Below are positions 13,513 to 64,000 of a DNA stretch of 64,000 nt, in pieces (position 1 is the first letter of the stretch; each line of letters opens with the position of its first letter). This DNA is from a virus (lineage: Duplodnaviria; Heunggongvirae; Uroviricota; Caudoviricetes). A program made the translations under genes and the position numbers. The stretch spans positions 49,952 through 113,951 of IMG/VR virus record IMGVR_UViG_3300021403_000003, one strand, 5' to 3'. A model generated the notes under the pieces. The model did not search any database and was not told the DNA's origin. It saw only the letters and a program-made list of their open reading frames with translations.

Positions 13513-13515
13513 TCT

Positions 13516-13957: not shown

Positions 13958-13980
13958 TGAATTCTCCTTCAGTGAAGATA

Positions 13981-14077: not shown

Positions 14078-14099
14078 TGACAGATCTTACAGACCGGTT
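14078..14099. repeat. 22-bp repeat GACAGATCTTACAGACCGGTTC (copy 2 of 2)
   Basis: Both copies lie 3' of leftward early transcription units. Confidence 0.6.
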
Positions 14100-14256
14100 C
14101 AGAGTTCAGGACATTTGTGAGGAAGTCTAGTGTCGTACAACTCACCACAACCTGAACACTCATCAAGAGCCTCTCGGTCCTCTTTGAGCTTCTTAGTTTC
14201 CTTGGCCTTCTGAGCCAACCAGTCTTTGCGACGTTGATCTTGATTCTTCGCGGCAA

Positions 14257-14436
14257 TCATGATTTGTCAATCATCAGACGTAACAGAGCGATCTTCTTAT
14301 AAATCTCCTTCACCAGCTTCAATTCATCTTCAATGAGACAACCTGCAGGATTGCCAATCATGTTCCTGGCAGTCCGTTCGAGCTCACCAGTCCAATAGAT
14401 GGCTTCATTTTTCGAAGCCTTTGATCGCTTGGCCAT
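14257..14436 (-). CDS. Small hypothetical protein (start revised to MAKRSK..., with GGAGA SD)
   Basis: The track ORF 14257..14466 begins inside the promoter; the internal Met at 14436 has GGAGA 6 nt upstream and lies downstream of the predicted transcription start. Confidence 0.4.
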   Translation of the reverse strand: MAKRSKASKNEAIYWTGELERTARNMIGNPAGCLIEDELKLVKEIYKKIALLRLMIDKS

Positions 14437-14465
14437 GTTTGTCTCCGTTCGTTTAGTGTGAATCA

Positions 14466-14494
14466 ATTATAATGTAAGAATTCGAGAAGTAAAG
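14466..14494 (-). promoter_or_regulatory. Early promoter P2 (CTTTAC-N17-TATAAT on minus strand)
   Basis: Same core repeat as P1, with a consensus TATAAT -10 hexamer. Confidence 0.6.
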
Positions 14495-14572
14495 CGTTAA
14501 ATTTCACTCCGAGTCAATGATATCCGACACCATCACCTGGTGGGGAGTCCAGGTTTTGATGAATCATCAATT

Positions 14573-14592
14573 TTGATTCAAGCTTGAATCAA
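14573..14592. promoter_or_regulatory. Perfect 20-bp palindrome TTGATTCAAGCTTGAATCAA between promoters P2 and P3 (candidate operator)
   Basis: Exact self-complementarity; abuts the -35 of P3; an adjacent TGATGA-A-TCATCA inverted repeat lies at 14556..14568. Confidence 0.5.
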
Positions 14593-14599
14593 TAAAAGA

Positions 14600-14628
14600 C
14601 TTTACTTCTCGAATTCTTACAGTATACT
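14600..14628 (+). promoter_or_regulatory. Early promoter P3 (CTTTAC-N17-TATACT)
   Basis: Identical 28-bp core; predicted transcription start about 14635. Confidence 0.6.
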
Positions 14629-14655
14629 CGTTTCTACTGAATGAAGGAGACTCTA

Positions 14656-15456
14656 GTGGACAAAGCAACTCACCGTGGTAACTGTCAGGTTTGTGGACAC
14701 CAGCAACATGTGATGAATGTAGTTCTGGCCAAGCATGGCTACACGGTAGAGTTTGGATACTTTCGAGGCACTTGTTCTGGGAGTGGCAAGAAGCCAATCC
14801 AACAGGACAGAACAATCACTGATGCCACCATTGTTGCAATGCATGAGTATGCAGCTGGTTGCGACAAGGATGCCGAAGATCTTCGATCTGGTAAGACTCT
14901 CCCTACAAAAATCAAGACTGGTCAGAAACTTTTGGCTGGTAAGTATCAACCTGTCTACATTCCCTTCTCTGAAGGCTCTCCTGAGCAACAGACCAAGGCT
15001 GTGGAGTTGTTCATTGCAATGGCTGAAAGTGGTGCTCGCCATGCTCGGGCTCATGCAAGTGACCTGAAGAAACTGGCTGATAGACTCCATGGCACTGAAC
15101 TGGTGTTGATCGTTGAACCAGTCAAGACCGAAAAGCCTGTGACGACTGTTGATGTGAAGACTGCCAAGGTGACTGGCACATTTGCCACCAAGACAGCTCG
15201 CCAGGCTGAACTTGACAAGGTTGCACGTGAGTATCAAAGAATCGAGAAGGCTTTGCATCAACTGACTCTGGATGTTCCCAATGATCAACGGACCAAAGAA
15301 CAGACGGATGTCTACTATGCAATCCCGATGTACCTGCACCAGTGGAAGGCCAAGCACAGTGCGATGGTGTTGAAAGTGTTCCCTCAGGCCCAGGAGATAG
15401 TGACTGAGATTGAACAGCTGGTGAAAGTTCGCGAAGCGATCAGATCTGCACCTTGA
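14656..15456 (+). CDS. Hypothetical protein (start taken at GTG after AAGGAG SD; track ATG at 14641 is too close to the transcription start)
   Basis: 266-aa ORF with a CxxC motif near the N-terminus; the minus-strand ORF 14653..15357 is judged a shadow. Confidence 0.45.
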   Translation: MDKATHRGNCQVCGHQQHVMNVVLAKHGYTVEFGYFRGTCSGSGKKPIQQDRTITDATIVAMHEYAAGCDKDAEDLRSGKTLPTKIKTGQKLLAGKYQPVYIPFSEGSPEQQTKAVELFIAMAESGARHARAHASDLKKLADRLHGTELVLIVEPVKTEKPVTTVDVKTAKVTGTFATKTARQAELDKVAREYQRIEKALHQLTLDVPNDQRTKEQTDVYYAIPMYLHQWKAKHSAMVLKVFPQAQEIVTEIEQLVKVREAIRSAP

Positions 15457-20928: not shown

Positions 20929-21381
20929 ATGAATCACCGTGAATTGTTATCAGAAATAATTGCATTTGCCACACAACGACATTATGGTCAGTTTGATAAA
21001 GGTGGCAATCCTTACATTCTTCATCCTTTGAAGGTGATGTATTTTCTTAAGACAGATGATGAAGAACTGCAATGTATTGCTGTAGGTCATGATCTAATTG
21101 AAGATACATCTACATCATATGCAGACCTCAAGGAAATTGGGATGACTTTGAGGATCATAGAAGGTATCAGACACCTTACCAATGTACCAGGAGAAACTTA
21201 TGAGGACAAAATCGAGAGAATTTGTTCCAATAAGGATGCCATGTTGGTAAAGCTTTGCGATCTTCGTCACAATTCTGACATCCGCCGACTCAAGGGCGTA
21301 ACGGAAAAAGATCTCAAGAGAATTGAACGGTACCAAAAGATGTACACTGAGATCAAGAATCGATTACAAACCATCAAGTGA
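20929..21381 (+). CDS. HD-domain hydrolase of the RelA/SpoT type (small alarmone (p)ppGpp hydrolase-like)
   Basis: GNPYILHP ... HDLIEDT matches the SpoT/Mesh1 HD motif pattern. Confidence 0.6.
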   Translation: MNHRELLSEIIAFATQRHYGQFDKGGNPYILHPLKVMYFLKTDDEELQCIAVGHDLIEDTSTSYADLKEIGMTLRIIEGIRHLTNVPGETYEDKIERICSNKDAMLVKLCDLRHNSDIRRLKGVTEKDLKRIERYQKMYTEIKNRLQTIK

Positions 21382-21489: not shown

Positions 21490-22542
21490 GTGAAGCATAT
21501 CCCTCAACTTGATGGTTTCAGAGCACTAGCTTGCCTGTTGGTGTTAGGAGCCCACCTCTGGAGATATCCACCTGATCATATCATCACCATGCGAGTGTTT
21601 GGTGGTGGATGGGTTGGTGTAGACGTTTTCTTTGTTCTTTCGGGTTTCCTGATCACTAGGATCCTAATTGAGTCAAAAGACAACCAAAGTTACTTCTCGA
21701 ATTTCTACATCAGGAGAGCTCTTAGAATATTCCCGGTAAATTACATTTTGATGGGAATTGTTCTGTTCGCTTTGCCTTTGTTCTCTAAATTTCCTCAATT
21801 GATGCAAGTAAAGCATGATGAACTTTGGTATTTGTTCTATGCAGCAAACATCATCATAGGGATTGGAGGATGGCAACTCTCACTTCTAAACATAACATGG
21901 TCATTGGCAATTGAGGAACAATTTTATTTGATTTGGCCTGCAATGATGAGATGGTTTTCTATTGAGAGGATGAAAATCATCTGTATTTCTTTGATCATCA
22001 TGGTCCCTGTTTTCAGAGCCATTTTATATCCTTACATTGGCTGGACATGGTGTTATGTTGCAACTCCTTTAAGAACTGATTCATTTGCATGGGGTGCAAT
22101 GATAGCTTTAGGTGGACAAGTTTTCTTCCGTCAAACTGCCATGTGTATGTTGATGATCCCGGTTTGGATTATCGTTCCTAATTTGATCCTTGGTAATTTT
22201 ATGAGGGAAGAATACTGGGTGAGTTCTTTGGGATATAGTTTGACAGCTATGGCCGCAGCGGGAGGATTATGGTTGGTTCTCAATGCAAAGAAAACCATTT
22301 TCTCAAATGTTGTTTTGAGAGAAATCGGGAAAGTGAGCTATGGTACATATTTGTATCACCCTCTTGTATCAGTTGTCGTAAGTCGTTTCTTTGAGGGTAA
22401 ATCTCTTCTAGGATCATGGATTTTTATGGTGATATCAACTTGTCTATCACTTGGTGTTGCAGAACTTTCCTTTAGGTACTTTGAATCACCTATCATGTCA
22501 TTAAGGCAGAAAGTTGTCTCCGTTTGGGGATGGAATGGGTGA
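21490..22542 (+). CDS. Acyltransferase family 3 (membrane-bound O-acyltransferase)
   Basis: About 10 predicted TM helices; N-terminal LDGFRALACLLV and YFFVLSGFLI blocks typical of acyltransferase_3. Confidence 0.6.
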   Translation: MKHIPQLDGFRALACLLVLGAHLWRYPPDHIITMRVFGGGWVGVDVFFVLSGFLITRILIESKDNQSYFSNFYIRRALRIFPVNYILMGIVLFALPLFSKFPQLMQVKHDELWYLFYAANIIIGIGGWQLSLLNITWSLAIEEQFYLIWPAMMRWFSIERMKIICISLIIMVPVFRAILYPYIGWTWCYVATPLRTDSFAWGAMIALGGQVFFRQTAMCMLMIPVWIIVPNLILGNFMREEYWVSSLGYSLTAMAAAGGLWLVLNAKKTIFSNVVLREIGKVSYGTYLYHPLVSVVVSRFFEGKSLLGSWIFMVISTCLSLGVAELSFRYFESPIMSLRQKVVSVWGWNG

Positions 22543-28161: not shown

Positions 28162-28698
28162 TCACTTCAAAATATTGATTAACATCTCAACATGAGAATC
28201 TAAAATACCATTTTCCCAACTTGTTTGAACCAAGTTCTGATCAGGATGGAAATCGCTATCGTCATCCACGCAAGCAAATTGTTTTACTTCTAGATGATCA
28301 TTGAGCCAAGCTTTTACTTCATCTCCACGGATACCTGATCTTTTGCGAGGTGTGATATCTATGATGGGTGCTTCCCAACCAAGTTCTTTCAACATATCCT
28401 TGATTTCATCTAAAGGATGAAGAATACGCCAAGAAGATGAAATTACAATTTGACATCCTGTCGTTTCTACAACCTTTCGAATTCTGGTCAAACAAATGGG
28501 ATCAATTTCAGCTGTGCCTCTTGAAAGCAAAGAAGTCATGTTTATGATCTTCTCTTGATTTTCATGAATGAATTTGCTGGAATTCAGTACTCCATCTATA
28601 TCAAGAAATAGGACTTTCATTTGTGTATCTTTCTGAAAACTGATCTGAGTGCCATCGGTAATGTTGTTACTTGTTCGTTTTGATTCTTTGCTTGACAT
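28162..28698 (-). CDS. HAD-superfamily phosphatase (polynucleotide 3'-phosphatase-like)
   Basis: N-terminal VLFLDIDGVLN matches HAD motif I (DxDG[TV]); later SSSW and D-rich motifs. Confidence 0.55.
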   Translation of the reverse strand: MSSKESKRTSNNITDGTQISFQKDTQMKVLFLDIDGVLNSSKFIHENQEKIINMTSLLSRGTAEIDPICLTRIRKVVETTGCQIVISSSWRILHPLDEIKDMLKELGWEAPIIDITPRKRSGIRGDEVKAWLNDHLEVKQFACVDDDSDFHPDQNLVQTSWENGILDSHVEMLINILK

Positions 28699-28862
28699 AA
28701 TCTAGATTCTGGGCACCCACAATTAGGAAATTGACACCACTCGAAATTGTACTCTGTATTACCATAGTCATTGACTTCTGCCTTACAATAATAACACCAA
28801 GAACCGGCACATTCTAGATGGTCACAATCAGGTGTCAAATCTATATTTCTTCCAAGGTCCAA
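28617..28862 (-). CDS. Cys-rich small protein
   Basis: Multiple CxxC-like pairs. Confidence 0.3.
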   Translation of the reverse strand: MDLGRNIDLTPDCDHLECAGSWCYYCKAEVNDYGNTEYNFEWCQFPNCGCPESRLCQAKNQNEQVTTLPMALRSVFRKIHK

Positions 28863-29149
28863 TCATTTTTGATGAAAGGATGACTTTTGTCCTTTAAACT
28901 CCAAGCTTCTCGTTCATCAATGTTGCTATCGACGATCATTTGTTTCACAAGTAAATGATTGTAATATCCCCCATTGATCCAAGTCCAACTAGGTTTTTGT
29001 GGATAGATCTTACCCTTTTTGGATAAATTTGTTTTCACGTATATCCAAATCTTGATACTACCATCAGGATTCTTGATTTGAAGTTTGACTTCTCTCGACG
29101 GCCTGTAGTACATTCCAGTTGGTATGTGCTTGAAACGATAACACTTCAT
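28841..29149 (-). CDS. Hypothetical protein
   Basis: Operon member. Confidence 0.35.
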   Translation of the reverse strand: MKCYRFKHIPTGMYYRPSREVKLQIKNPDGSIKIWIYVKTNLSKKGKIYPQKPSWTWINGGYYNHLLVKQMIVDSNIDEREAWSLKDKSHPFIKNDWTLEEI

Positions 29150-29616
29150 ATATTGCCTGCAATGATGATTTCAGAACGAACTTCCATTAAAATTTTACCT
29201 AACCAGTTCAACCCATCATTTTTGCAAACTCCCCAAAACTTGTCACCCCACCAATTACCTTCAATCAATTCTGCATTACCAGTGGCAATCAATTTGGCCC
29301 GAAGTTCTGGATTCATGAATTTATGACGAATCAGGTCTCTCATTATCGGAACTTTGACAAAATCCCAATCAACCCTGAAACTCTTGATGGTCTTTCCGGC
29401 CTTCTTGGCTTGAGCTGCTGTCATGTTTTTGAATTGCCAACGTTCTGTTATATCAGAAGCTTTTGCAGCCTGATAAGCATTTTCAACTGATGGATATGTA
29501 TCACCATCGAATTTTACTTCAACTTGCCAAAAATTACTCAACCAACGGTATTCACCAGAAAAAGAAGTAATTTCAGTCACGTTTCCAAATCCTTCTTGTA
29601 TACTGAAAACAACCAA
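29146..29616 (-). CDS. NADAR-domain protein (YbiA/DUF1768-like N-glycosidase)
   Basis: YRWLSNFW ... ENAYQAAK ... W(G/D)...GxN.LG.ILM.VR matches the NADAR signature. Confidence 0.65.
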   Translation of the reverse strand: MVVFSIQEGFGNVTEITSFSGEYRWLSNFWQVEVKFDGDTYPSVENAYQAAKASDITERWQFKNMTAAQAKKAGKTIKSFRVDWDFVKVPIMRDLIRHKFMNPELRAKLIATGNAELIEGNWWGDKFWGVCKNDGLNWLGKILMEVRSEIIIAGNI

Positions 29617-31314: not shown

Positions 31315-31598
31315 TCATGACTACAAGAAAACATAAAGTGAAGATAGAGTCAAGGGCTCTAAGAGATGAACCAGAAGGAGAAATTCGAAATCCTCCCAGA
31401 AAGTTTTTGAAATTAAAATGGTATCTTTATACCATTTTCACTTTCTTGTTATGGGGTTTCATCGACCCTGCTCTGATTTCTGCAAAGGATGACCTTTCTG
31501 TCATTGGTGGGGTTGCTTTGGCTGTTGTTTGGGTAGAGATTTCATACTATTTTTGGGTAAAACCGTTGATCAATAAACTGAAGGAGAATGTATCTTGA
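31311..31598 (+). CDS. Membrane protein (2 TM)
   Basis: Hydrophobic helices; ATGA overlap. Confidence 0.4.
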   Translation: MIMTTRKHKVKIESRALRDEPEGEIRNPPRKFLKLKWYLYTIFTFLLWGFIDPALISAKDDLSVIGGVALAVVWVEISYYFWVKPLINKLKENVS

Positions 31599-32428
31599 AG
31601 TCAATCGTGCGAATTGTTACTATTGCTTTGATTTGTGCTGCAATGGTGGCTTGTATGAAGGTGCCTGTTGGCAGTGTTGGTATTATGGTGGATCTATATG
31701 GCAGTGACAAGGGAGTTCTCCCAAAAGAATTGGGACCAGGAAGGTACTATGTCGGTTACAACCAGGAACTGTTTACATTCCCAACGTATACACAAACATA
31801 TACTTGGACTAGGAGTTTGACTGAAGGTCGTGCACAGGATGAATCATTTACGTTCAATTCTGTGGAGGGTATTTCCGTCAATGCAGATGTTGGTATCACA
31901 CTGCACGTTGATCCAACAAAGACTGCTGAACTTTTCCAAAAGTATCGTCGTGGTATGGATGAGATTCTTGATACATTTGTTCATAACCTCGTTCGTGATG
32001 CATTGAATGAACGATCTTCAACCATGCCTATTGAGGACATCTATGGTAAGGGTAAGGCTCAGCTTATCGCTGATGCACAAAAAACTGTACAGGACCAATT
32101 GAATCCTGTTGGTATTGTGGTTGAAAAATTATACTTGGTATCAGCTCCACGTCTACCGGATGCAATCATCACTGCCATCAACAACAAGATGAAGGCAACT
32201 CAGATGGCTGAGCAGCGCAATAATGAAATTGCTCAGGCTGAGGCTGAGAAAACCATCAAGATCAAGGAAGCTGAGGGTGAGGCCCAGTCTATCAAAATCA
32301 AGGGTGATGCACTTCGTGATAATCCAGGCTTGGTTCAGTTGGAAGCTGTTCGAAAGTGGGATGGTCATTTGCCAAACGTGAGTGGTGGTGCTGTACCATT
32401 CATTCAGGTTACACCCACAGGAAAGTAA
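31595..32428 (+). CDS. SPFH/band-7 (prohibitin/HflC-like) membrane-anchored protein
   Basis: N-terminal TM/signal segment, SPFH core, and C-terminal AQAEAEKTIKIKEAEGEAQSIK coiled coil. Confidence 0.6.
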   Translation: MKSIVRIVTIALICAAMVACMKVPVGSVGIMVDLYGSDKGVLPKELGPGRYYVGYNQELFTFPTYTQTYTWTRSLTEGRAQDESFTFNSVEGISVNADVGITLHVDPTKTAELFQKYRRGMDEILDTFVHNLVRDALNERSSTMPIEDIYGKGKAQLIADAQKTVQDQLNPVGIVVEKLYLVSAPRLPDAIITAINNKMKATQMAEQRNNEIAQAEAEKTIKIKEAEGEAQSIKIKGDALRDNPGLVQLEAVRKWDGHLPNVSGGAVPFIQVTPTGK

Positions 32429-37351: not shown

Positions 37352-39046
37352 GTGAAGATATTTGGTTTCGATATCAAGAAATTCAGTGATGAAGTCCCTG
37401 AATCTCCAGTTATGCCACAAAATGATGATGGAGCTATCGTCATTGAAGCTCCTGTCAGTGGTATCTATGTTGATCTTGATTCCTCTTATCGTTCAGAATT
37501 AGATCTCATTCACAAATATCGTCAAATGGCACTCCAACCAGAAATGGAGAATGCTATCAATGATATTGTTGATGAAGCTATCGTTCATGATTCCGATTCT
37601 GGTGAAATCATCAAAATCAACATGGATCGCCTTAAGCAACCAGACAAGATTAAATCATTGATTCGTGAAGAATTTAATAATGTTTTGAAATTGTTAGATT
37701 TCAACAATTTTGGAGATGAGATCTTCCGTAAATGGTACATTGATGGTCGTTTGTATTACAATGTTATCATTGACAAAGATAACCCTCGTGATGGTATTCA
37801 AACCCTTGTATACATTGACAGTCGTAAGATCAAGAAAGTTCGTCAGGTCACCAAGGATAAGAATGCACAAGGAGTTGAAGTCATTACAGGTGTAGAAGAA
37901 TTCTACGTCTATAATGATAAACTTCTCATGACTAATCCAAACAGTGGCAACCCGCTGTTTCAGACTTCCGTTGCTGCAGGTATCCGCTTATCAGCAGACA
38001 GTGTTGTGCAGGTCACATCAGGTGTATATGATCCAATCAAAGCAACCATCCTCAGCTACCTTCACAAGGCTATCCGCCCTCTGAATCAGCTTCGTTTTGT
38101 TGAAGATGCAACAGTTATATATCGTGTAAGTCGTGCTCCAGAACGTCGTGTGTTCTATGTAGACACGAGCGGAATGAACAAAGCCAAGGCTGAACAGTAC
38201 ATGAAGAGCCTTATGACCAACTATCGTAACAAGTTGTCATATGATGCTTCTACAGGAGAGATTCAGGATCAACGTAAGTTTTTGGCAATGATTGAAGATT
38301 ATTGGATGCCACGTAATTCAACAGGCAAATCCAGTGAAATCACGACCCTACCTGCAGGTCAGAACCTTGGTCAAATGGAAGATGTGTTGTATTTCGAAAA
38401 GAAGCTATACAAGGCTCTTGGTATTCCAGCATCCCGTATTGAAAATCCAACAGGGTTATTTAATATTGGTCAGCCTGGCACCATAACTCGCGACGAGGTG
38501 AAATACACAAAGTTCATTCATCGTATGCGTTCACGTTTTTCTTCATTGTTTGATCAATTGATGGAACGTCAATTGGCATTGAAAGGTGTTTGCACAGTCG
38601 AGGAATGGAACCAATTCAAACAAGATTGTTTTTATCAATATCAAGAGGATAACAACTTTGCTGAGTTGAAAGAAACTGAGATCTTGATGAATCGTATGAA
38701 CACATTGACAGTTGTTCAACCATTCATGGGAATTTTCTTCAGTAAGAGTTGGGTCTGGAAGAACATCCTACGCATGGATGAAGATGAAATTAATGATATG
38801 AAAAAGGAAATGGAAGAAGAATTTCAAGATGCAGAAACTCAAGGACATCCACCATTGGCTGGATTCCCACCTGTTGTCCCACCTGGTGCGCCTGTTCCAA
38901 TGGATGGTGATGGACAACCAGGCGCACCAGGTCAAGCTCAACCAGCTGTACCAAAATCACCTGGTCAAGAGGTAGAGGATTCAACTCCAGCAGGACAAGC
39001 TCAAAAGAAAATAAATGATCAAACTAAGGCTTTCTTGAAAAAGTGA
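37352..39046 (+). CDS. Portal vertex protein (gp20-like) with Pro-rich C-terminal tail; GTG start
   Basis: 564 aa, position after gp18/gp19. Confidence 0.8.
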   Translation: MKIFGFDIKKFSDEVPESPVMPQNDDGAIVIEAPVSGIYVDLDSSYRSELDLIHKYRQMALQPEMENAINDIVDEAIVHDSDSGEIIKINMDRLKQPDKIKSLIREEFNNVLKLLDFNNFGDEIFRKWYIDGRLYYNVIIDKDNPRDGIQTLVYIDSRKIKKVRQVTKDKNAQGVEVITGVEEFYVYNDKLLMTNPNSGNPLFQTSVAAGIRLSADSVVQVTSGVYDPIKATILSYLHKAIRPLNQLRFVEDATVIYRVSRAPERRVFYVDTSGMNKAKAEQYMKSLMTNYRNKLSYDASTGEIQDQRKFLAMIEDYWMPRNSTGKSSEITTLPAGQNLGQMEDVLYFEKKLYKALGIPASRIENPTGLFNIGQPGTITRDEVKYTKFIHRMRSRFSSLFDQLMERQLALKGVCTVEEWNQFKQDCFYQYQEDNNFAELKETEILMNRMNTLTVVQPFMGIFFSKSWVWKNILRMDEDEINDMKKEMEEEFQDAETQGHPPLAGFPPVVPPGAPVPMDGDGQPGAPGQAQPAVPKSPGQEVEDSTPAGQAQKKINDQTKAFLKK

Positions 39047-39447
39047 TGGGCACGCCAAGAGGACCATATCAAGGAAAGACTGAGTACAGTCTTTCTCACC
39101 AAAGAAAGCTTGGTTTATTGAAACCAAAGGTGATCGATTACAAGAAAAAGATCATGGATAATGTGAAGATCGATGAGCAAACAGGTTGTTGGATCTGGCA
39201 AAGATGTAAAAACAATCTGGGATATGGATTCACAACATATCATGGTAAAGGAAACCAATTAGTTCATCGCGTTGCTTACATGGAATTCATTGGTCCTATA
39301 CCAGACCCATCTGTTTGTCATAATTGTGACAATCCAAGTTGTTGTAATCCAGATCATCTTTGGTCCGGTACTCAAAGGCAAAATACACAAGACATGATCA
39401 GTAAATCTCGTGAAGGTTGGTTCATGAGCAAGATCATCAATTGCTAA
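39046..39447 (+). CDS. HNH endonuclease (HNH_3-type, free-standing homing endonuclease-like)
   Basis: GYGFTTYHGKGNQLVHRVAY ... CHNCDNPSCCNPDHLW; ATG overlaps the portal stop (TGATG). Confidence 0.75.
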   Translation: MGTPRGPYQGKTEYSLSHQRKLGLLKPKVIDYKKKIMDNVKIDEQTGCWIWQRCKNNLGYGFTTYHGKGNQLVHRVAYMEFIGPIPDPSVCHNCDNPSCCNPDHLWSGTQRQNTQDMISKSREGWFMSKIINC

Positions 39448-55750: not shown

Positions 55751-58153
55751 TTGACCACCTTACCCCACGCCAACGGTCGCAAAATTGACCTGACGGTTAC
55801 CAAGGCACTCCTCGCCAAGCTCCTCGCTTCAGAGAACCTGACAGTGATTCATGAGCCTATCGAGACTGCGTATTTCGACCTGCGTGATCGTGTACTTCAC
55901 TGCCCCATTTTCAAGGACATGACCAGCAGCCTATACGACCTTCTTATGGGTCATGAGGTTGGTCATGCCTTGTACACTCCCATGGAGGGTTGGCACAAGG
56001 AGATAGTAAAGTGCAATCAGAATCACGAGCATGAGGATTCATGCTATGATGTAAATTTCAAAGGCTTCCTGAATGTTTGTGAGGATGCCAGGATAGAGAA
56101 GAAAATTAAGCGCAAATTCAATGGTTTGCGCTCTAGTTTCGCTCAAGCTTATTCTGAACTGATGGATCGCGACTTTTTTGGAGTCAAGGGTGTAGATGCT
56201 TCCAATCTGAATTTGATCGATCGCATCAACCTCTTTTTCAAAGTTGGTTCTCATTATCCAGTTCAGTTCAATCAAGAAGAGCAAGCTTACGTTCAACAGT
56301 TGGAAAATGCTGAAACTTGGGATGATGTTGTTACGGTTGCTCGTGCGATCTACAAATATGATCAAGAACAGCCGAAGATCAACAACTTGAGCCAGTTGAA
56401 GAACCTTAAAGGTAAAGGTCAACAGAAGTTTGACAAACCTGGTAAGTCTGATCAAGGTTCTGGTAAGCAGAAAGATCAGGACAATCAAGATCAGGAGAAC
56501 GCTTCTGATTCCGACCCCAGTGGTAAAGATGATTCCCAAGATGGTAAAGGTTCTGATGGTGGTCAAGGTGACAAATCAGAAAAGAGCGACAAATCAGCTC
56601 AAGGGGAAGGAAAGACTAGCAATAATGGGGAAAAGAAGGATGAAAAGGACAAAAAAGGCAAGCAGGTTGGTCCATTAGGTGGTATCAACAAGGAAAAGAC
56701 CCCTCCGACTAGCCCACAGTCAGTAACTGACCAGAGCTTTCGTCACAACGAAAATCAATTGGTCAACACTAATAATTTCGATCAGTTGATCAATGCAACC
56801 TTTCCCAAGGCAGATTTGGGGAAGGTCATATATGACGTGAAAACAGTTGTGGAGTTCTACGAGCGTCAGGCCAGCATTGAAACTAAAACAGCTTCTGTGG
56901 AAATTCTCAAATTTTTCACGGTCAAAAACAAAGCTTCTGTGATGCACCTACTGAAAGAATTTGAGATGCGCAAGAACGCTCGTCAATATATGCATGCCAA
57001 GATCACTCGCACCGGAGAGCTGGATTCTGAATTGTTGTCAGAATATCGCTTTCGGAATGACATCTTTTTGCAGAGCACTGAGACATTGAAGGGTAAAAGT
57101 CATGGTATGGTGATGTTTCTGGATATGTCAAGTTCCATGAATGGTAATTTCATGTATCATGCAATAGAACAAATTCTAACGCTTACATCTTTCTGTGACA
57201 AGGCTCACATGCCTTATGATGTATATGGGTTTGCTGATAACTTGGAATACTCTGCAAAGGTCAACATCAAAGGTTATAGTACCAAAGGTTATGGTACAAA
57301 CAATGACTTATTCAGTCACGGCATCCGTGATCTACAATGCAACACTGGTTATTTCCATCTGCGTCATCTGATTTCCAGCCGTGTTTCTGGTCTATTGCGC
57401 AAGCGTGCAGCTCAAATGCTTGCAATGTTGGCTGGTTTTCATACCTCTGATCAGAGGATCCCCAGTAAAGACGGAAAGTCTGAAGATATCCATCCAGTTC
57501 GTCGGTTAATGAGTAAAGTAAAGGATACATCCGCATGCGGACTTGGTACACATGGTACCCCATTGAGTGAGTGTATCATTAGCTCCCGTCAAATCATTGA
57601 GAAATTCAAAACTGACACCAAGGTTGATATCACTAACGTGATCTATTTGTCAGATGGTAATGGTTCTCAGATTGGGATACCACAAGGTCAAAGTGGTAAC
57701 AAGCTCATGATCACGGACCCAGTAACCCGTAAGCACAAATATGTGGATAATATCTCCAACACAAGGTATGACGAAAACGTTAAGGTACAATCTGCTTTGG
57801 TATCTTTTGTTAAGGAACTCACTGGTTGTCGTCACATTTGTTACTACATTTGTGATTCCAGTCATGTCAGATCCATGGCCAAAAAATTGAAAGATAGCAA
57901 TGCACGTAAGGAAGCGGAAGAAACATCAAAGAAATATGGTTATGTAGCTGTACCGATGATGGGGTTTGACCGCTACTTCTACATCAGCACTGAATTCATG
58001 GGCTACAAAGATAAATTCACTGGACAGAAAGTTGAGGGTTCCACTGAAAATCTGGAAAAGGCTTTCAGCCAGAATATGGTATCCAAGAAAGCTCAACGTG
58101 CGGTAATGCAACAGTTTGCTCAAGATATTGCTACCATTGACGGGTTGGAATAA
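55751..58153 (+). CDS. CobT-like vWA-domain protein with N-terminal HExxH motif and central K/D/G/Q-rich disordered linker; TTG start in track
   Basis: MIDAS DMSSSM in the C-terminal vWA domain; GHEVGHALY zincin-like motif; AGGAGACTAGC SD before TTG. Confidence 0.55.
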   Translation: MTTLPHANGRKIDLTVTKALLAKLLASENLTVIHEPIETAYFDLRDRVLHCPIFKDMTSSLYDLLMGHEVGHALYTPMEGWHKEIVKCNQNHEHEDSCYDVNFKGFLNVCEDARIEKKIKRKFNGLRSSFAQAYSELMDRDFFGVKGVDASNLNLIDRINLFFKVGSHYPVQFNQEEQAYVQQLENAETWDDVVTVARAIYKYDQEQPKINNLSQLKNLKGKGQQKFDKPGKSDQGSGKQKDQDNQDQENASDSDPSGKDDSQDGKGSDGGQGDKSEKSDKSAQGEGKTSNNGEKKDEKDKKGKQVGPLGGINKEKTPPTSPQSVTDQSFRHNENQLVNTNNFDQLINATFPKADLGKVIYDVKTVVEFYERQASIETKTASVEILKFFTVKNKASVMHLLKEFEMRKNARQYMHAKITRTGELDSELLSEYRFRNDIFLQSTETLKGKSHGMVMFLDMSSSMNGNFMYHAIEQILTLTSFCDKAHMPYDVYGFADNLEYSAKVNIKGYSTKGYGTNNDLFSHGIRDLQCNTGYFHLRHLISSRVSGLLRKRAAQMLAMLAGFHTSDQRIPSKDGKSEDIHPVRRLMSKVKDTSACGLGTHGTPLSECIISSRQIIEKFKTDTKVDITNVIYLSDGNGSQIGIPQGQSGNKLMITDPVTRKHKYVDNISNTRYDENVKVQSALVSFVKELTGCRHICYYICDSSHVRSMAKKLKDSNARKEAEETSKKYGYVAVPMMGFDRYFYISTEFMGYKDKFTGQKVEGSTENLEKAFSQNMVSKKAQRAVMQQFAQDIATIDGLE

Positions 58154-58165
58154 AGGAGATTAAAC

Positions 58166-58567
58166 ATGATCGGTATGTTTCAACCACCAATCAAATGTAT
58201 TTGTGGTGATACTGAGTTTCATCAATACACTGGCAGCATCGGTCAATTCAGGTGCAAAAAGTGCGGAACTTCTCATGACATGACCAAGGATGTGATCATT
58301 ACAAACTTGGAAGCCATGGCTGAAGATTTCATCCGGGCACGTGGAACTCGTGACTACTTGACTGTGCTGGTAGTTGATGTTGATCGACACATTGAAAATG
58401 GTGGTTGGCAATTGGTACAGTTAGCAATTGGATCACCCCAGATACAATCTTCTGTGCGTTCTCCACGTCTTGACATTAATTTCCATACTTTGGATCACCT
58501 CTACGAGCAACTCGTTAAGTTGTTTCCTTATTCTATATTCATTCGTCTTAATTTGCCAAGATCCTAA
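58166..58567 (+). CDS. Zn-ribbon protein
   Basis: CICGDTEFHQ ... CKKCGTSHD. Confidence 0.4.
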   Translation: MIGMFQPPIKCICGDTEFHQYTGSIGQFRCKKCGTSHDMTKDVIITNLEAMAEDFIRARGTRDYLTVLVVDVDRHIENGGWQLVQLAIGSPQIQSSVRSPRLDINFHTLDHLYEQLVKLFPYSIFIRLNLPRS

Positions 58568-58660
58568 CTAATTGACTCAATTGGTAATTTACCACTTTAC
58601 TTCAATCATTGATTCAACGAATATAGCCCCTGATCGATAAATAAACAGGAGACTAGGACC

Positions 58661-60055
58661 GTGGCCAAAGAGACGTTTTATACGCCAGAGAGACAAGAAG
58701 AGTACTGCAATGGTATTGCAAGTCACTTCAACTCAGACGTTATTACAGCCAAGCAGGTATCAGAGTACAATTCACTCAAAAACCTGCCGTATCCCTATTT
58801 TCTCACGATGGACAAGAAGCGCAGCGCAGGTTGGGGCAAATACCGCGTGCGTGGTCAGGGTGAAGCGCCTGTCAAGGTTGATAAACAGGCTGTATCAAAG
58901 GCTGTTTTCGAGGAAATGGTAAAAAGTTTTGTGCCAGAAAAGAGTAGCACATACATACCATTTGGTTTCTTTAACGACTGCTATTCCATTATCAACTCCA
59001 AGATTTTTTATCCTGTATATGTCACTGGTCTTTCTGGAAATGGCAAGACTGAGATGATCATTCAGGCTTGCGCAAAAGCAGTTCGTGAATTGATACGAGT
59101 AAACATCACGAAGGATACCCACGAGCTGGATCTGATGGGTTCCAACATCCTCGTGGATGGTAACACCTTCTATCAAGAAGGCCCGGTTATTACTGCAATG
59201 AAGCGTGGTGCAATCCTGCTGTTAGACGAGACCGACTTGGGCAGTGAACGCCTGCTCTGCTTGCAACCGGTTCTCGAAGGCAAGCCAGTCCTCAACAAGA
59301 AGACCGGTGAGATTGTACATCCCAAGGAAGGGTTCAACATTTTCGCAACAGCTAACACCAAGGGCCAGGGCAACGCTGATGGCCGTTTCATCGGTACCAA
59401 CACATTGAATGAAGCGTTCCTGGAGCGTTTCGCGATTACGGTTGAACAGGAATATCCAAACGAACAAACAGAGACCAAAATTCTCGAGAAGAACTTCGAG
59501 GAATTGGGTATTGAACTTGCTACCCACAAAATGTTTTTGTGGAGTTTGATCAATTGGGCGCAGTTGGTTCGTAAGAGTTATGCCGAGGGCGCAGTTGGTG
59601 AAATTATCAGCACTCGTCGCTTGATTCACATTGTTAAAGCTTACTCTATCTTCAAGAACAAGAAGAAATCAGTGACTTTGTGTTTGAATCGGTTTGATGA
59701 AGAAACCAAAGTTGCCCTTGTTGATTTTTGGGATAAGGTCTTCAAGGAAGAACCAAAACCTGTTGACCCGAATGAAAAGGTTATGCCTCCTGGTACTACT
59801 AAGGCTACTCAGAACAAGGAACGTACTGATATTGAGTTTGTTCCTGTTAGTGGAGTGATGACTAACAAGTTCAAGACCCCAGTTGCCCTCAAAGCTGAGA
59901 ATGATCCTATTGGGAAGAAAGTGCTTGCGGTCTATTCACACAACAACAAGACAACCAAACCGATGGATCAGTTGCCGAACCCGACAAGCGTTCGTGAGTT
60001 TGAGATGGCTGTCCAGCGTATGGTTGAGGCCAATAGTATCGGAGGTGCAGCATAA
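58661..60055 (+). CDS. cobS: CobS-like MoxR-family AAA+ ATPase; GTG start
   Basis: Walker A GLSGNGKTE, Walker B ILLLDETD, arginine-finger region; the usual partner of the upstream vWA protein. Confidence 0.75.
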   Translation: MAKETFYTPERQEEYCNGIASHFNSDVITAKQVSEYNSLKNLPYPYFLTMDKKRSAGWGKYRVRGQGEAPVKVDKQAVSKAVFEEMVKSFVPEKSSTYIPFGFFNDCYSIINSKIFYPVYVTGLSGNGKTEMIIQACAKAVRELIRVNITKDTHELDLMGSNILVDGNTFYQEGPVITAMKRGAILLLDETDLGSERLLCLQPVLEGKPVLNKKTGEIVHPKEGFNIFATANTKGQGNADGRFIGTNTLNEAFLERFAITVEQEYPNEQTETKILEKNFEELGIELATHKMFLWSLINWAQLVRKSYAEGAVGEIISTRRLIHIVKAYSIFKNKKKSVTLCLNRFDEETKVALVDFWDKVFKEEPKPVDPNEKVMPPGTTKATQNKERTDIEFVPVSGVMTNKFKTPVALKAENDPIGKKVLAVYSHNNKTTKPMDQLPNPTSVREFEMAVQRMVEANSIGGAA

Positions 60056-60163: not shown

Positions 60164-60221
60164 CTGAGGTGCAAGACCTCAGGTTGGGGCCAGATGTGAA
60201 TAGCATCTGGCCCACTTTTTA
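60164..60221 (+). terminator. Tandem hairpins (CTGAGGT/ACCTCAG, then GGGCCAGATG/CATCTGGCCC plus T-run): rho-independent terminator
   Basis: 10-bp GC stem, 7-nt loop, ACTTTTTATT. Confidence 0.7.
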
Positions 60222-60264
60222 TTGGTCCTATAATTTATCTATATAATGCAGTGATGGTAAAATT

Positions 60265-61575
60265 TTGGAGAATGATATGCCAAAGACTGTTTTTGTTGAT
60301 AAACGAGAACACGAAGAACTACTTGGTACCTTCCTGAATGATTCGCATTACGAAACTTTGATTGATGATGATATTGATGTATATGTCAGGGATCGTTTTG
60401 GTAATGAATCTATTGATGAAGACAATGTTGTCTTGAAGTTTCGTAAAAACTGGTTCACAAAAGAACAACAGGAAGGTGCATATGAAGGACTGAAAGATGC
60501 GGCAGTTCAATCTCAAAATCGTGGTTTAGCAGCTGGACCAAAGGGCGAGAAATGCTTGAATCGTGATTGGGTCACACCTGAACAATCTTTGTTTTTGAAG
60601 TTCTTGGAAAAAGTCACATCCAAACCAACAGAAGAAGATGTAGCATTCATCAAAAGTTCTGCTTCCGTTACAGAAGATACAAGGGGATTGGTTTGGCTTG
60701 GTTCTGAGAAAGAAAAGCACAACTTTGATTGGGTTGTTTGGATTAACAAGGTTGTATCTGGTGGAATGACTCTTGATGATATTAAAAAAGATGTCAATTG
60801 GATCAATGATGAATTGATCAGCGATACAACCTATGCTAATCCTGTAGATTCAGGGATTGCTGGTTGGTTTGGACGTTACCCAAGGATTCCATATGGAAGA
60901 GCAACTGCTTACACCAATCATAACCGTCAAAAGTTCGAGTTGTGCTACCCATTTATGCAACAACTCTCACTCGGTTTCGAGCAACTATTACCCCAACGTT
61001 TTTCGAATCAAATGGCAGAAACCGAAAAGCTTGATCCCAATTTCTACATACCAGGCACTCCATTCACAACAATCACTGTTAATAGAAATTTTCGGACAGC
61101 CGCACATCGAGATGCAGGTGATCTTGCCAAAGGATTCTCAAATCTAACTGTTGTAGCAAAGGACAAAAATTATGAAGGTTCTTATCTCGTTTTACCCGAA
61201 GCTCGTGCTGCTGTTAACATTCGTCCTGGCGATCTTTTGCTTGTGGGAAATCATGATTGGATTCATGGCAACACACCCATATTGGCACCCAATGTTGGAG
61301 ACCTTGAGCGTATTTCTCTTGTTTGTTATTTTCGCGAAGACATGTTGGATCTTGGTTCAAAGGAATATGAAGATCAAAGATTCAATTATGTAGAAACTCG
61401 TCGCAAGAACCAATCTCACCCTTTATGGTGGTCACGCTGGAATGGGGTGAGTAATGGTATGTGGGGTGAAGAATGGTTCAATTTTCTACGTGAGAATAAT
61501 AAGGAAAATCTCATAACTAAGTATCATCCAGAAACCACCATTGAAAATAATTCACTTGAGGATTTCTTTACATGA
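60265..61575 (+). CDS. 2OG-Fe(II) oxygenase superfamily protein (large; DSBH core in the C-terminal half)
   Basis: HRDAGD (HxD) ... PGDLLLVGNHDWIHGN (distal His); the true start may be the Met at 60277. Confidence 0.5.
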   Translation: MENDMPKTVFVDKREHEELLGTFLNDSHYETLIDDDIDVYVRDRFGNESIDEDNVVLKFRKNWFTKEQQEGAYEGLKDAAVQSQNRGLAAGPKGEKCLNRDWVTPEQSLFLKFLEKVTSKPTEEDVAFIKSSASVTEDTRGLVWLGSEKEKHNFDWVVWINKVVSGGMTLDDIKKDVNWINDELISDTTYANPVDSGIAGWFGRYPRIPYGRATAYTNHNRQKFELCYPFMQQLSLGFEQLLPQRFSNQMAETEKLDPNFYIPGTPFTTITVNRNFRTAAHRDAGDLAKGFSNLTVVAKDKNYEGSYLVLPEARAAVNIRPGDLLLVGNHDWIHGNTPILAPNVGDLERISLVCYFREDMLDLGSKEYEDQRFNYVETRRKNQSHPLWWSRWNGVSNGMWGEEWFNFLRENNKENLITKYHPETTIENNSLEDFFT

Positions 61576-61808
61576 TGTACAAGTGCATTGAAGCTCCTTG
61601 CTGTTATCAAAATCCTGTTCCAGAACTTCAGTTGCTTCCAAATGGAGAATTTGAGTGTCCATATTGCAAGCGAAACTATGATCAGCAAACTCTTAACAGG
61701 ATATACAAAACAACTCCTTGTATAGGGAATGATGAGGAATGTCATCTATTTTGCTGTAATATCTGGTGTGAAGGTGATTGTGAATATTGTGGAGTTGAAA
61801 GATCATGA
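61572..61808 (+). CDS. Cys-rich small protein (Zn-binding)
   Basis: CPYCKRN ... CCNIWCEGDCEYCG; ATGA overlap. Confidence 0.4.
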   Translation: MMYKCIEAPCCYQNPVPELQLLPNGEFECPYCKRNYDQQTLNRIYKTTPCIGNDEECHLFCCNIWCEGDCEYCGVERS

Positions 61809-62014
61809 CATATGAAGAACTCCGTCAACGTTGTGTGAATTTTTCTGAAATGCATCCAAACAATCCATGTAATTTAATTGATATTGCTAGACATGCTAAA
61901 CGTAGAGCAATAGAAAGAGGAAACATGGATAAGTTTGAAGAACTCGTTATTGAATTAGCAAATTTCATTGAAAATAAGAGAAAACCTAAGAGATGCTCAA
62001 CCAAGAATGGGTAA
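61805..62014 (+). CDS. Hypothetical protein
   Basis: ATGA overlap. Confidence 0.35.
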   Translation: MTYEELRQRCVNFSEMHPNNPCNLIDIARHAKRRAIERGNMDKFEELVIELANFIENKRKPKRCSTKNG

Positions 62015-62736
62015 CAAAGGTGACTTCTGATCTTCAATCAGAAGATGCTCCTATCATCTGCAAACCATCAAGAACGACAGGTTATACCTTGGGTGATAGC
62101 ATTGCGGTCTTTGCAGGGCTGGATTATGACTACCTCTTTACCAGCCCACCTTGCTATGAGGACCTAGAGTCTTTTGGTGTAACACCGAAACGACCTGAGA
62201 CCTACAAGACCCATTTCTTGAGTCAGTGGTTACCGAAGGCTGTTCCAAAACTTGGTACTATTACGATCTCATTTACTGGTGCACGTCGCCATGATGGAAA
62301 GATTCTCCCTAAATCATACTTCTTACAACAGTGCATGTATGAGTGTGGATACTATCTGCGTGACATCAAAAAGGTTAAGAAATCAAACAGCTTCAATGCC
62401 TATTCACACCAGGTGATTGAGGTTCTGACCTTCCAGAGGGAAGGCACAAAGGCGGTTTATAACCTCCGGAAGGAAAAGTTGTATGACAGTTATGGTAAGG
62501 ACGTTTGGGGACCATTTACCAAAGAACAATTGGTTGATGGTGAAGTTGTCGGTCAGCCCATTCAGATTGCTGAATATTGTGTAATGAACTTCACCAACGA
62601 AGGGCATTTGGTTCTGGATCCATTTGCTGGCATCGGGACAACTTGCGAAGCATCTCGTAGACACAATAGACAATACCTTGGGTATGAGATTCGAAAGTCA
62701 ATCTGGCAGCATGGAGTCAATTTCTACGGCCTATGA
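61993..62736 (+). CDS. DNA methyltransferase, beta-class amino-MTase (N4-C or N6-A), orphan
   Basis: Motif IV FTSPPCY precedes motif I VLDPFAGIGTT (order IV then I is the beta class); no adjacent restriction endonuclease. Confidence 0.75.
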   Translation: MLNQEWVTKVTSDLQSEDAPIICKPSRTTGYTLGDSIAVFAGLDYDYLFTSPPCYEDLESFGVTPKRPETYKTHFLSQWLPKAVPKLGTITISFTGARRHDGKILPKSYFLQQCMYECGYYLRDIKKVKKSNSFNAYSHQVIEVLTFQREGTKAVYNLRKEKLYDSYGKDVWGPFTKEQLVDGEVVGQPIQIAEYCVMNFTNEGHLVLDPFAGIGTTCEASRRHNRQYLGYEIRKSIWQHGVNFYGL

Positions 62737-63809
62737 AAACAAATATTGATTATCGCGATCCACAATACAGAACACTTGGATTCGACAAATTTTACGAATT
62801 TCATATTTCAACTAATGACTGCTCTCCTGATATTGCAGTAGAAACTTGGATCGCCAATAAGGAAAATTGGGATTACGAGAAACGTTGTGTAATGGCACTG
62901 TTTCATGGTGCAACTTACGCTGGGCCCTGTGAAACAATGTTTGCTGACAAGTTTCCAGTTTTCAATAGTGAAATCATTTCATCAGCCATAGAATTCTTTG
63001 AAATAAACAAGAAACGACTCCTGTTCAGCCCTGATTGTAAATATCGTAAAATGGTGTTCCCAAAGTTCCTTCAGAGTATTGGTGACAGTTTGATGTTTTG
63101 CACACTTGGTGAAAAGATCAAAAGCCTAATGTATTCTGATGATCCTAAGAAGAATTATTTGGCTCTTCAGAAGTGGTGCATGGAGAATTGGTATCATTGG
63201 GGCAGAATGGGTCATTGGTGTTTCTCAGAAGCTTTACATCGTTTTATTAATGCTCCTATAGAAGCACCAACTATGGAATTTGGTCCAGGAGGTAAGAGCC
63301 ATACTGCAGGTTGGGCATTCTCAATTGGTCTCGATGATTATGTTGATAAAGCAGAAACTCTAGAACCAACCGCTGTTGAATATCTTGAAGGAACAGCACG
63401 CAAATACATTACAGAATTCCAACAACATCATCCTCAATTGAAGCTTGCTCAATATTTCACTCTTGAAACTGCTTGTTGCAACTACAAACGTCAACACAAA
63501 GGTAGTCGTTATGGTGGATGTTACATAGATGAACAATACGATGAAATTCTATACATGCAAAGCCTCTGGCCAGAATATAAGTGGCTCTGGGACCTATATA
63601 TACAAGGAAGACAAGCAGTTATCCCATTAAGCTTGCTTTTTGAAAATTTCAGCAATATTGGTAATGCTTATATGACCAGTTGGTGTAATGCATTGAAAGA
63701 TTGGGGAAGAATTCCAAGAATAGAAGCTTGGCATAATAAACAACCTCAAGAGTGGCGTCATATTACTTTCATGCCTTGGTATGGTGATGGTGGACTGGAA
63801 AATTTATGA
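62733..63809 (+). CDS. Hypothetical protein (Cys/Trp-rich)
   Basis: ATGA overlap; 358 aa. Confidence 0.4.
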   Translation: MKTNIDYRDPQYRTLGFDKFYEFHISTNDCSPDIAVETWIANKENWDYEKRCVMALFHGATYAGPCETMFADKFPVFNSEIISSAIEFFEINKKRLLFSPDCKYRKMVFPKFLQSIGDSLMFCTLGEKIKSLMYSDDPKKNYLALQKWCMENWYHWGRMGHWCFSEALHRFINAPIEAPTMEFGPGGKSHTAGWAFSIGLDDYVDKAETLEPTAVEYLEGTARKYITEFQQHHPQLKLAQYFTLETACCNYKRQHKGSRYGGCYIDEQYDEILYMQSLWPEYKWLWDLYIQGRQAVIPLSLLFENFSNIGNAYMTSWCNALKDWGRIPRIEAWHNKQPQEWRHITFMPWYGDGGLENL

Positions 63810-64000
63810 TGTTGTACAAAATTTGTCATTGTGGTAAACACAAAATTTGGTTCTGGTCCCGCGTACCTTGGCCAAAATTCATTCAAAGATGGATAAATCA
63901 ATACAAGGTTTGGAAGCTGGAAACAGACCTTGCCAATCAATTTGCTGAAGAAATTCGTAAGGAAATTGACGCTGAAATCATTGAAAAGATTCGTAAGGAA
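63806..64000 (+). CDS. Hypothetical protein, 3' end outside the window
   Basis: Open frame to the window end starting MMLYKICHCGKHK; ATGA overlap with the upstream gene. Confidence 0.35.
   Translation, partial: MMLYKICHCGKHKIWFWSRVPWPKFIQRWINQYKVWKLETDLANQFAEEIRKEIDAEIIEKIRKE

Follow-up and report, generated by a model that had tools for sequence, protein, structure and literature searches.

DNA hypermodifications decide whether phages survive restriction and CRISPR defences, and they are a source of enzymes for DNA labelling and sequencing. The logic of the underlying pathways was reportedly predicted by Iyer et al. in 2013. Here we describe a gene cluster at the end of a stretch of 64,000 nucleotides of viral DNA (positions 49,952 to 113,951 of IMG/VR record IMGVR_UViG_3300021403_000003; this whole stretch is called the window). 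The cluster encodes a TET/JBP-type dioxygenase (Tet), a small zinc-ribbon protein, a protein resembling DNA methyltransferases (MTases) and an amino acid:DNA transferase (ADDT, also written AADT). Comparison with related loci indicates that it is probably the promoter-proximal part of an operon for post-replicative hypermodification of thymidine in a T4-like myovirus.

The closest described systems are the phage clusters around thymine dioxygenases of the 5-methylpyrimidine dioxygenase (5mYOX) type (PMC13229309; contigs 22-25 of PMC8989533). Phage 5mYOX enzymes that have no cytosine-C5 methyltransferase (C5-MTase) gene as neighbor convert thymine to 5-hydroxymethyluracil (5hmU) post-replicatively, in vivo as well as in vitro (O'Toole et al., PMC13229309), and the neighborhoods of these thymine dioxygenases contain P-loop kinases, AADTs and GATases (PMC13229309). 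Contigs carrying Tet_JBP, 5-hmU DNA kinase (5-HMUDK) and AADT genes without a dUMP hydroxymethylase had been noted earlier by Lee et al. (PMC8989533). The window cluster resembles these clusters in the lack of a neighboring C5-MTase gene, the adjoining AADT, the Ploopntkinase3 gene (here found in relatives) and the post-replicative origin of 5hmU, which is predicted here. It differs in that the window has no ParB gene and in that the Tet protein is about 430 instead of about 290-330 amino acids long, with an insertion and a C-terminal extension. Furthermore, genes for an MTase-like protein with a non-canonical motif IV and for the zinc-ribbon protein are located between Tet and ADDT, and the cluster occupies a slot between CobS and DNMK/gp45 in a T4-like myovirus backbone. 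Since clusters of Tet, kinase and transferase have been published before (PMC8989533, PMC13229309), no new category is opened by this locus; the system type has been described computationally and was partly validated biochemically in 2021-2026 (PMC8989533, PMC8256090, PMC13229309). Distinctive for the sub-type are an MTase-like enzyme embedded in the cluster, which has an atypical catalytic motif and a zinc-ribbon partner, and the long Tet protein that is not accompanied by ParB. In the literature on such clusters compared here (PMC8989533, PMC8256090, PMC13229309) this sub-type is counted only, with no assay or analysis devoted to it: the mining table of the O'Toole preprint gives N6_N4_Mtase for about 2.2% of the 5mYOX contigs, AADT for 13-16% and kinase for 10-12.5% (PMC13229309).

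With the phages ViI, M6, PhiW-14, SP10 and PaMx11 (Lee et al. 2018; 2022) the locus shares a transferase of the clade-2 aGPT-Pplase/AADT type with essential Cys and Glu, and a 5-hmU DNA kinase (here predicted from relatives). It is likewise predicted here that an amino acid is added to a uracil derivative in DNA, at its C5-methylene. Whereas these phages produce 5-hydroxymethyldeoxyuridine before replication by means of a dUMP hydroxymethylase, the predicted source of 5hmU in the window is a dioxygenase acting on DNA. The tailoring enzymes of those phages, which depend on pyridoxal phosphate (PLP), radical S-adenosylmethionine (SAM) or flavin adenine dinucleotide (FAD) or are acetyltransferases, have no adjacent counterpart here.

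The synthesis of base J in kinetoplastids (JBP1/2 and JGT) also starts with the conversion of thymine to 5hmU by a TET/JBP enzyme, as predicted for the window. The second step of base J synthesis is glucosylation, unlike the phosphorylation and subsequent amino acid transfer predicted here, and the DNA-binding and SNF2 domains of JBP are absent from the window Tet. In the phage pathways to modified 5-hydroxymethylcytosine (5hmC) that use TET, C5-MTase and glycosyltransferase (Burke et al., PMC8256090), a phage TET/JBP enzyme likewise heads a post-replicative cluster. The window differs from these in having no C5-MTase, and an ADDT-type transferase replaces the glycosyltransferase or is added to it.

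Gene organization of the operon

A scan of the window for open reading frames (ORFs) returned five successive ORFs on the plus strand, so the five-gene block proposed in the initial annotation is real. Homology support is strong for four of the five, the exception being an ORF of 69 amino acids. The features are as follows.

60187-60223, plus strand: terminator-like hairpin followed by a T-run, with an 11 bp stem including 7 GC (scan and sequence)
60277-61575, plus strand: TET/JBP Fe(II)/2-oxoglutarate 5-methylpyrimidine dioxygenase (5mYOX), long form, 432 amino acids
61572-61808, plus strand: Cys-rich protein of 78 amino acids, with homologues in loci L004 and L041 and fused in protein P0219
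61805-62014, plus strand: ORF of 69 amino acids without homologue
61993-62736, plus strand: protein of the beta-class N6/N4 DNA-methyltransferase fold, 247 amino acids (PF01555)
62733-63809, plus strand: amino acid:DNA transferase (ADDT/AADT), 358 amino acids (PF18724)
63806-64000, plus strand: sixth ORF, coupled to the ADDT gene by ATGA and cut by the window end

The hairpin lies between the end of the upstream gene for a CobS-like AAA+ protein (60055) and the operon, and TATAAT-like boxes follow it at about 60230-60250; a terminator scan of the block found none on the plus strand inside the operon. The initial annotation described all genes as linked by ATGA overlaps of start and stop codons. 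Four junctions have this arrangement when the sixth ORF is included (61572, Tet/78-amino-acid protein; 61805, 78-/69-amino-acid ORFs; 62733, MTase/ADDT; 63806, ADDT/sixth ORF), whereas the 69-amino-acid ORF and the MTase gene overlap by 22 nt. The window ends 191 bp past the ADDT stop codon and the sixth ORF runs off this end, which means that the window cuts the operon short.

Translation of the oxygenase most likely starts at the ATG at 60277 rather than at the TTG at 60265, because a GGAG sequence is present 7 nt upstream of the ATG and a database protein of 432 amino acids is 100% identical from this position onwards. For the 69-amino-acid ORF no homologue was found in any of the searches made and it is a candidate gene only; in relatives its position is taken by unrelated small ORFs. 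Small ORFs between the cassette enzymes are in general not conserved among relatives, and in syntenic relatives the slot of the sixth ORF contains either an HNH gene or between zero and four small ORFs, followed by the P-loop kinase. The sixth ORF (…KIWFWSRVPWPKF…) loosely resembles, in a comparison by eye, an ORF of 79 amino acids at 4369-4608 of locus L133 (…MWFFWSDVRWRPPG…).

The amino acid:DNA transferase

The protein that gives the pathway its identity is the last complete one of the block. Whereas no recognizable motif had been seen in it at first, a Pfam search matched its 358 amino acids to the ADDT family (PF18724, E = 5.9e-11, 43 bits against a cutoff of 26.2), with the Glu/Cys motif of that family, and homologues of it are labelled aGPT-Pplase clade 2 by JGI. 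By these sequence criteria it is an ADDT/AADT, formerly clade-2 aGPT-Pplase. The active-site motif ETACC is encoded at 63465-63479 within a conserved LETACCN segment, and E245, C248 and C249 are invariant in 42 ADDT homologues. The motif aligns to FETSGAC of the homologue from the ViI-like phage Se-G; overall identity to the ViI-type enzyme is about 25%. In M6 gp51 and ViI gp247, which move glycine or serine onto kinase-activated 5hmU in DNA, the Cys and the neighboring Glu are essential (Lee et al., PMC8989533). The ADDTs characterized so far use 5hmU-derived substrates (PMC8989533). The ADDT identity thus turns what had been called a possible base-modification system into a specific pathway: a DNA base-modification system is supported, and it is narrowed to thymidine hypermodification.

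The TET/JBP dioxygenase

The oxygenase matches the Tet_JBP family (PF12851, E = 1.5e-23, 83.3 bits against a cutoff of 34.9) with residues 219-358 of an ORF of 436 amino acids. Its model has the double-stranded beta-helix fold, and fold comparison places it closest to TET2, NgTET1 and CcTet, rather than to AlkB or to protein hydroxylases. This agrees with the assignment from the fold and the HRD...H signature in the initial annotation, against which grouping with protein hydroxylases had been named as evidence. The HRD motif is encoded at 61105-61113, the distal His at 61264-61266 and the 2-oxoglutarate-binding Arg at 61309-61311, and none of the corresponding residues H277, D279, H330 and R345 varies among 42 homologues. 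The distance from His to Arg is 15 residues, the same as in TET2. Cultured phages with full-length homologues (42-48% identity) are Stenotrophomonas phage DLP6, Caulobacter phage Cr30 and phage C48C1; Cr30 also has an ADDT, and in DLP6 and C48C1 sugar-related genes are found nearby. The label 'SNF2 DNA repair protein' given to phage Tet homologues was not supported by a Pfam scan of the window protein.

Compared to the Tet proteins of about 300-330 amino acids in other cassettes, the T4-like form has two additional parts, a helical insertion at about residues 95-180 and an extension at the C-terminus (about 366-432). According to O'Toole et al., a variable insertion governs the ParB dependence of 5mYOX enzymes (PMC13229309). 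No ParB_N or ParBc domain was found among the scanned window ORFs of at least 100 amino acids. That the long Tet protein might itself contain a ParB domain was rejected, as aligning the cassette ParB profile with that of Tet by hhalign yielded a probability of 0.03; the additional parts of the long form have no similarity to ParB.

The oxygenase is predicted to hydroxylate thymine to 5hmU in DNA, a step deduced from its family, its context and the published enzymology of phage homologues. Homologues of C5-MTases (PF00145), thymidylate synthase and dUMP hydroxymethylase were not found among window ORFs of at least 100 amino acids, and C5-MTase, thymidylate synthase/hydroxymethylase and ParB homologues were not found in the syntenic loci either. 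This bears on the alternative that the enzyme acts on 5-methylcytosine (5mC) and that the cluster hypermodifies cytosine instead of thymine. Phage TETs of clades A and B do oxidize 5mC (PMC8256090), P-loop kinases acting on 5hmC were proposed for a few contigs (Burke et al., PMC8256090), and some thymine dioxygenases oxidize 5mC as well (PMC13229309). However, besides the missing C5-MTase, the only MTase of the cluster has a beta-class amino-MTase fold and its Cys residue alternates with Asp among homologues, so this Cys cannot be the conserved nucleophile of a C5-MTase; the substrates of the characterized ADDTs also argue for a uracil derivative. We consider an action on cytosine very improbable.

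Conservation of the cassette and the downstream kinase of relatives

For comparison, 42 metagenomic loci were gathered with the ADDT profile and compared by tblastn. The order Tet - MTase-like - ADDT - kinase occurs in more than 20 metagenomic loci. Tet is present in 24 of the 29 ADDT loci with enough upstream sequence and the kinase in 28 of the 37 with enough downstream sequence, while an MTase-like gene adjoins ADDT in 21/29 informative loci (18 immediately upstream, 3 immediately downstream); a few near-duplicate contigs are among those counted. The cassette has a wide distribution in viromes from freshwater, soil and marine sources. With four enzymes (Tet, MTase-like, ADDT and kinase) it is a concrete system, small enough for testing.

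The T4-like relatives L004, L133 and L135 share the order gp46/47 - peptide deformylase - vWA - CobS - Tet - small ORFs - MTase - ADDT - small ORFs/HNH - Ploopntkinase3 - glycosyltransferase-like (GT-like, about 300 amino acids) - DNMK - gp45, and the L004 ADDT is 78% identical to that of the window. In each of these close syntenic relatives the kinase gene is located 0.2-1.7 kb downstream of ADDT. Because of this synteny, the kinase gene required by ADDT enzymes most likely follows ADDT within 1-2 kb in the present phage as well. The assignment of the relatives' kinase to the 5-hmU DNA kinase type is by Pfam PF18751, with no significant match in a direct BLAST against ViI-like and Cr30 loci. 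A further link between Tet and kinase is found in locus L005, a bacterial integrative island, where an ORF of 1031 amino acids (11838-14933) adjoining ADDT combines a Tet_JBP domain with a C-terminal kinase homologue. This fusion connects Tet and kinase to one pathway, which, judged from this ORF, is present in cellular mobile elements too, as a fused enzyme. The same island carries an integrase gene (6862-8109); genes for a resolvase, SIR2 and a type I MTase are found in the vicinity.

Tet is invariably the first gene in the slot that CobS and DNMK/gp45 flank in this T4-like lineage, whereas the remainder is variable:

L048: Tet - kinase - GT-like
L037: Tet - ADDT - kinase - GT-like
L050: Tet - GATase - 290-amino-acid protein - GNAT - 437-amino-acid protein - ADDT - kinase-like - 271-amino-acid protein
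window, L004, L133 and L135: Tet - (small ORFs) - MTase - ADDT - kinase - GT-like (for the window, the genes past ADDT are predicted from the relatives)

This abundant lineage therefore carries a variable hypermodification island in which modules are swapped (GT-like only; GATase, GNAT and ADDT; MTase and ADDT), which makes it a natural system for the combinatorial evolution of DNA chemistry. The GT-like protein of about 280-330 amino acids that is conserved after the kinase in almost every T4-like relative (L048, 9935-10921; L135, 12125-13015; L004, 12298-13131; L001, 8535-9392) has weak similarity to Anp1/GT8 (GT-A-like). Apart from the kinase, L048 has no other candidate transferase, and the protein may serve as an alternative group transferase for 5hmU or phospho-5hmU.

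Two unrelated backbones carry the cassette, namely T4-like myoviruses, with Tet proteins of about 430-450 amino acids, and marine phages of the ParB/terminase/HK97 type, with the order ParB_N - Tet (318 amino acids) - MTase - ADDT - kinase - TerL - portal - MuF - HK97 capsid. By its gene order, the marine form has the ParB-dependent architecture that O'Toole et al. describe (PMC13229309). It could be envisaged that the MTase-like protein, perhaps together with the zinc-ribbon protein, is a DNA-binding or base-flipping helper of the dioxygenase which stands in for the ParB activator: the marine cassettes have ParB_N directly upstream of the 318-amino-acid Tet, as in the ParB-dependent class (PMC13229309), while the window version lacks ParB, keeps the MTase and has a Tet with the additional insertion and C-terminal extension. 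However, the marine loci carry ParB and MTase together, so the MTase is no substitute for ParB there, and L037 and L048 encode a long Tet with neither MTase nor ParB. The SAM-binding residues of the MTase-like protein are moreover strictly conserved, which points to catalysis. A helper role is highly unlikely on this evidence.

The methyltransferase-like protein and its zinc-ribbon partner

The 247-amino-acid protein matches N6_N4_Mtase above the Pfam cutoff (PF01555, E = 8e-16, 59 bits), and its best Foldseek matches are N4C/N6A MTases with TM scores of about 0.6-0.68. As in beta-class enzymes, motif IV (SPPCYED, 62143-62163) precedes motif I (DPFAGIGTT, 62617-62643). In the family alignment motif I (with D209, F211 and G213), the motif II Glu (E232) and the QxP motif X are invariant, so that the SAM-binding half is canonical. 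The fold, the permutation (IV before I), the FxGxG SAM loop, the acidic residue of motif II and the QxP motif X are shared with M.RsrI, M.PvuII, CcrM and rotifer N4CMT. In contrast to the (D/N/S)-P-P-(Y/F/W) of these enzymes, motif IV of the window protein reads S-P-P-C-Y-E-D, with an extra residue, C or D in the family, between PP and the aromatic residue. The beta-class assignment of the initial annotation was thus borne out by motif order, Pfam and Foldseek, but not by the tetrapeptide. In the MTase subfamily of the cassettes motif IV is [S/G]-[P/T/I/S]-P-[C/D]-[Y/F/L]-E-D, in which P, E and D are invariant. Similarity to solved MTases at the level of hidden Markov models is confined to the SAM-binding half, and the N-terminal two-thirds gave no match. 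Since homologues are about 220 amino acids long, the start codon of the gene may lie downstream of 61993.

An exhaustive profile search identified a wider family of about 210-230 amino acids with the motif SPPD[F/Y]xEL, in which no characterized member was found. The family is common in T4-like phages, from which its members in IMG/VR (L053, L054, L055, L058) come, near vWA, CobS and gp45 and with no Tet, ADDT or kinase nearby. The idea that the atypical motif is specific to hypermodification cassettes was rejected for this reason. The 'PC' dipeptide also raised the possibility of a disguised C5-MTase, which was discarded in view of the Cys/Asp alternation across the family and the beta-class amino-MTase fold. 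As this is not the fold of a C5-MTase, the protein is likely not the maker of the oxygenase substrate, which is likely thymine itself. No restriction endonuclease adjoins the MTase gene, as already noted in the initial annotation: nuclease domains are absent from the operon ORFs, and close to the operon the relatives have only HNH genes of the homing type.

The 78-amino-acid protein, described at the outset as a Cys-rich Zn protein, has an N-terminal CxxxxC...CxxC zinc ribbon (C5, C10, C29 and C32, 61584-61667) and a C-terminal Cys cluster. Homologues are encoded in L004 (49% identity) and L041 (39%), and the ribbon is fused to the N-terminus of the MTase homologue P0219 (48% over 48 amino acids, E = 6e-13). 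The fusion suggests a functional link between the two window genes, and the zinc-ribbon protein is probably a partner of the MTase-like protein.

In view of the wider family and of loci that have Tet, ADDT and kinase but no MTase, the most likely role of the MTase-like protein is independent DNA methylation, to N6-methyladenine (m6A) or N4-methylcytosine (m4C), as an activity that travels with the cassette. A different role would be that of a chemical step in hypermodification, with methylation of the amine or amide of the appended amino acid or of another group of the modified thymine. Amino-MTases of this superfamily also act on non-base amines, for example PrmC on glutamine. Such a role would suit the position of the gene between Tet and ADDT or adjoining ADDT in 21 of the 29 informative loci on both backbones, its translational coupling to ADDT by ATGA, the retention of the SAM motifs with replacement of the catalytic tetrapeptide by [S/G]xP[C/D][Y/F]ED including the invariant acidic pair, and the dissimilarity of the catalytic half to solved DNA MTases at the profile level. 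However, T4-like phages with no Tet, ADDT or kinase nearby also have the SPPD[F/Y] signature, so the unusual motif does not belong to hypermodification alone; as a whole, the fold is the one of DNA amino-MTases; and L037 and L050, with Tet, ADDT and kinase, have no MTase, so the protein is dispensable for the core pathway. We therefore regard an integral role as doubtful, but if it were true the product would be a methylated amino-acid-thymine, a base not described before. Equally doubtful is a combined proposal in which MTase and zinc ribbon methylate the hypermodified thymine, at the amino acid side chain or another atom, instead of making m6A or m4C, and the long Tet is a self-sufficient thymine dioxygenase of the otherwise ParB-dependent type.

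Proposed pathway

For the preferred interpretation, thymidine hypermodification with independent methylation, the following steps are predicted. The TET/JBP dioxygenase would hydroxylate the C5-methyl group of thymine in phage DNA to give 5hmU, and the P-loop 5-hmU DNA kinase, expected in this genome beyond the window, would phosphorylate the hydroxyl group to phospho-5hmU. The Cys of ADDT would then attack C6, with Glu acting as acid, and expel the phosphate, upon which a free amino acid would add to the exocyclic methylene to form an amino-acid-substituted thymine, the predicted final base. The MTase-like protein, a fixed part of the cassette that probably acts with the 78-amino-acid zinc ribbon, would most likely introduce a second, SAM-dependent mark (m6A or m4C) in the DNA; an action on the new side chain is less likely. 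The modifications would shield the DNA of the phage against restriction by the host and against other nucleases. The sequences show the identities of the genes, their catalytic residues and the conservation of the cassette, and the substrates, the succession of steps, the kinase of this genome and the final base are predicted. The sequence from thymine via 5hmU and phospho-5hmU to amino-acid-thymine is the best supported one, because of the missing C5-MTase, hydroxymethylase and ParB genes together with the findings of O'Toole et al. and Lee et al.

Several points weigh against this scheme. The kinase gene is not within the window, and a gene for a C5-MTase or dUMP hydroxymethylase could lie outside the window in the genome of roughly 267 kb. 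The preference for thymine or 5mC is not readable from the Tet sequence, and some clade C1 enzymes without ParB were inactive on both thymine and 5mC in Escherichia coli (O'Toole et al., PMC13229309); by analogy, the long window Tet may resemble these. Tailoring genes (PLP, radical SAM, FAD) are not adjacent, and the GT-like gene of the relatives could mean that a sugar is attached instead of, or besides, an amino acid.

Genome context

The source of the DNA is a T4-like myovirus, as the window encodes gp23 major capsid protein, gp20 portal protein, prohead protease, scaffold, tail sheath and tube proteins and terminase. Replication genes include those for UvsY, UvsW and gp46/47-like nuclease subunits, and further genes encode peptide deformylase and a pair formed by a vWA 'peptidase' and a CobS-like AAA+ protein. 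This pair is part of a set at 55751-60055 (plus strand): a vWA 'peptidase' of 800 amino acids (phrog_459) with a long low-complexity stretch rich in K, D, G and S, a small zinc-ribbon ORF (58166-58567) and the CobS-like AAA_5 ATPase (phrog_249). In L004, L048, L050 and L135, which are T4-like relatives, this set always immediately precedes Tet. Proteins identical to the ADDT and Tet of the window are recorded on a contig of 267,524 bp, well above the 130-170 kb of the contigs of syntenic relatives, so the source may be an unusually large T4-like genome or a concatemer. IMG/VR contained no close relative of the ADDT, and megablast against cultured phages gave no match. No structured RNAs or tRNAs were found in the window.

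Some genes elsewhere in the window have matches of separate interest. An ORF of 203 amino acids at 11354-11965 (plus strand) matches the anti-CBASS protein Acb1 (PF23474, E = 5.5e-14) and is a candidate counter-defence gene for degradation of cyclic nucleotides. A block on the minus strand (28162-29616), in a genome that otherwise uses the plus strand, codes for a protein with a HAD_SAK_2 domain (28162-28698, E = 3e-30) and for one with a NADAR domain (29146-29616, E = 7e-24), domains that are associated with RNA repair and ADP-ribose processing. An HNH_3 endonuclease gene at 39043-39447 (plus strand) overlaps the stop codon of the portal gene (37352-39046) and probably encodes a homing endonuclease; other HNH/NUMOD insertions are found within the hypermodification operon of relatives (L004, 7440-7769 and 11083-11721). 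Auxiliary genes on the plus strand encode an HD_4 protein (20929-21381), an Acyl_transf_3 membrane acyltransferase (21490-22542) and an SPFH/Band 7 protein (31595-32428).

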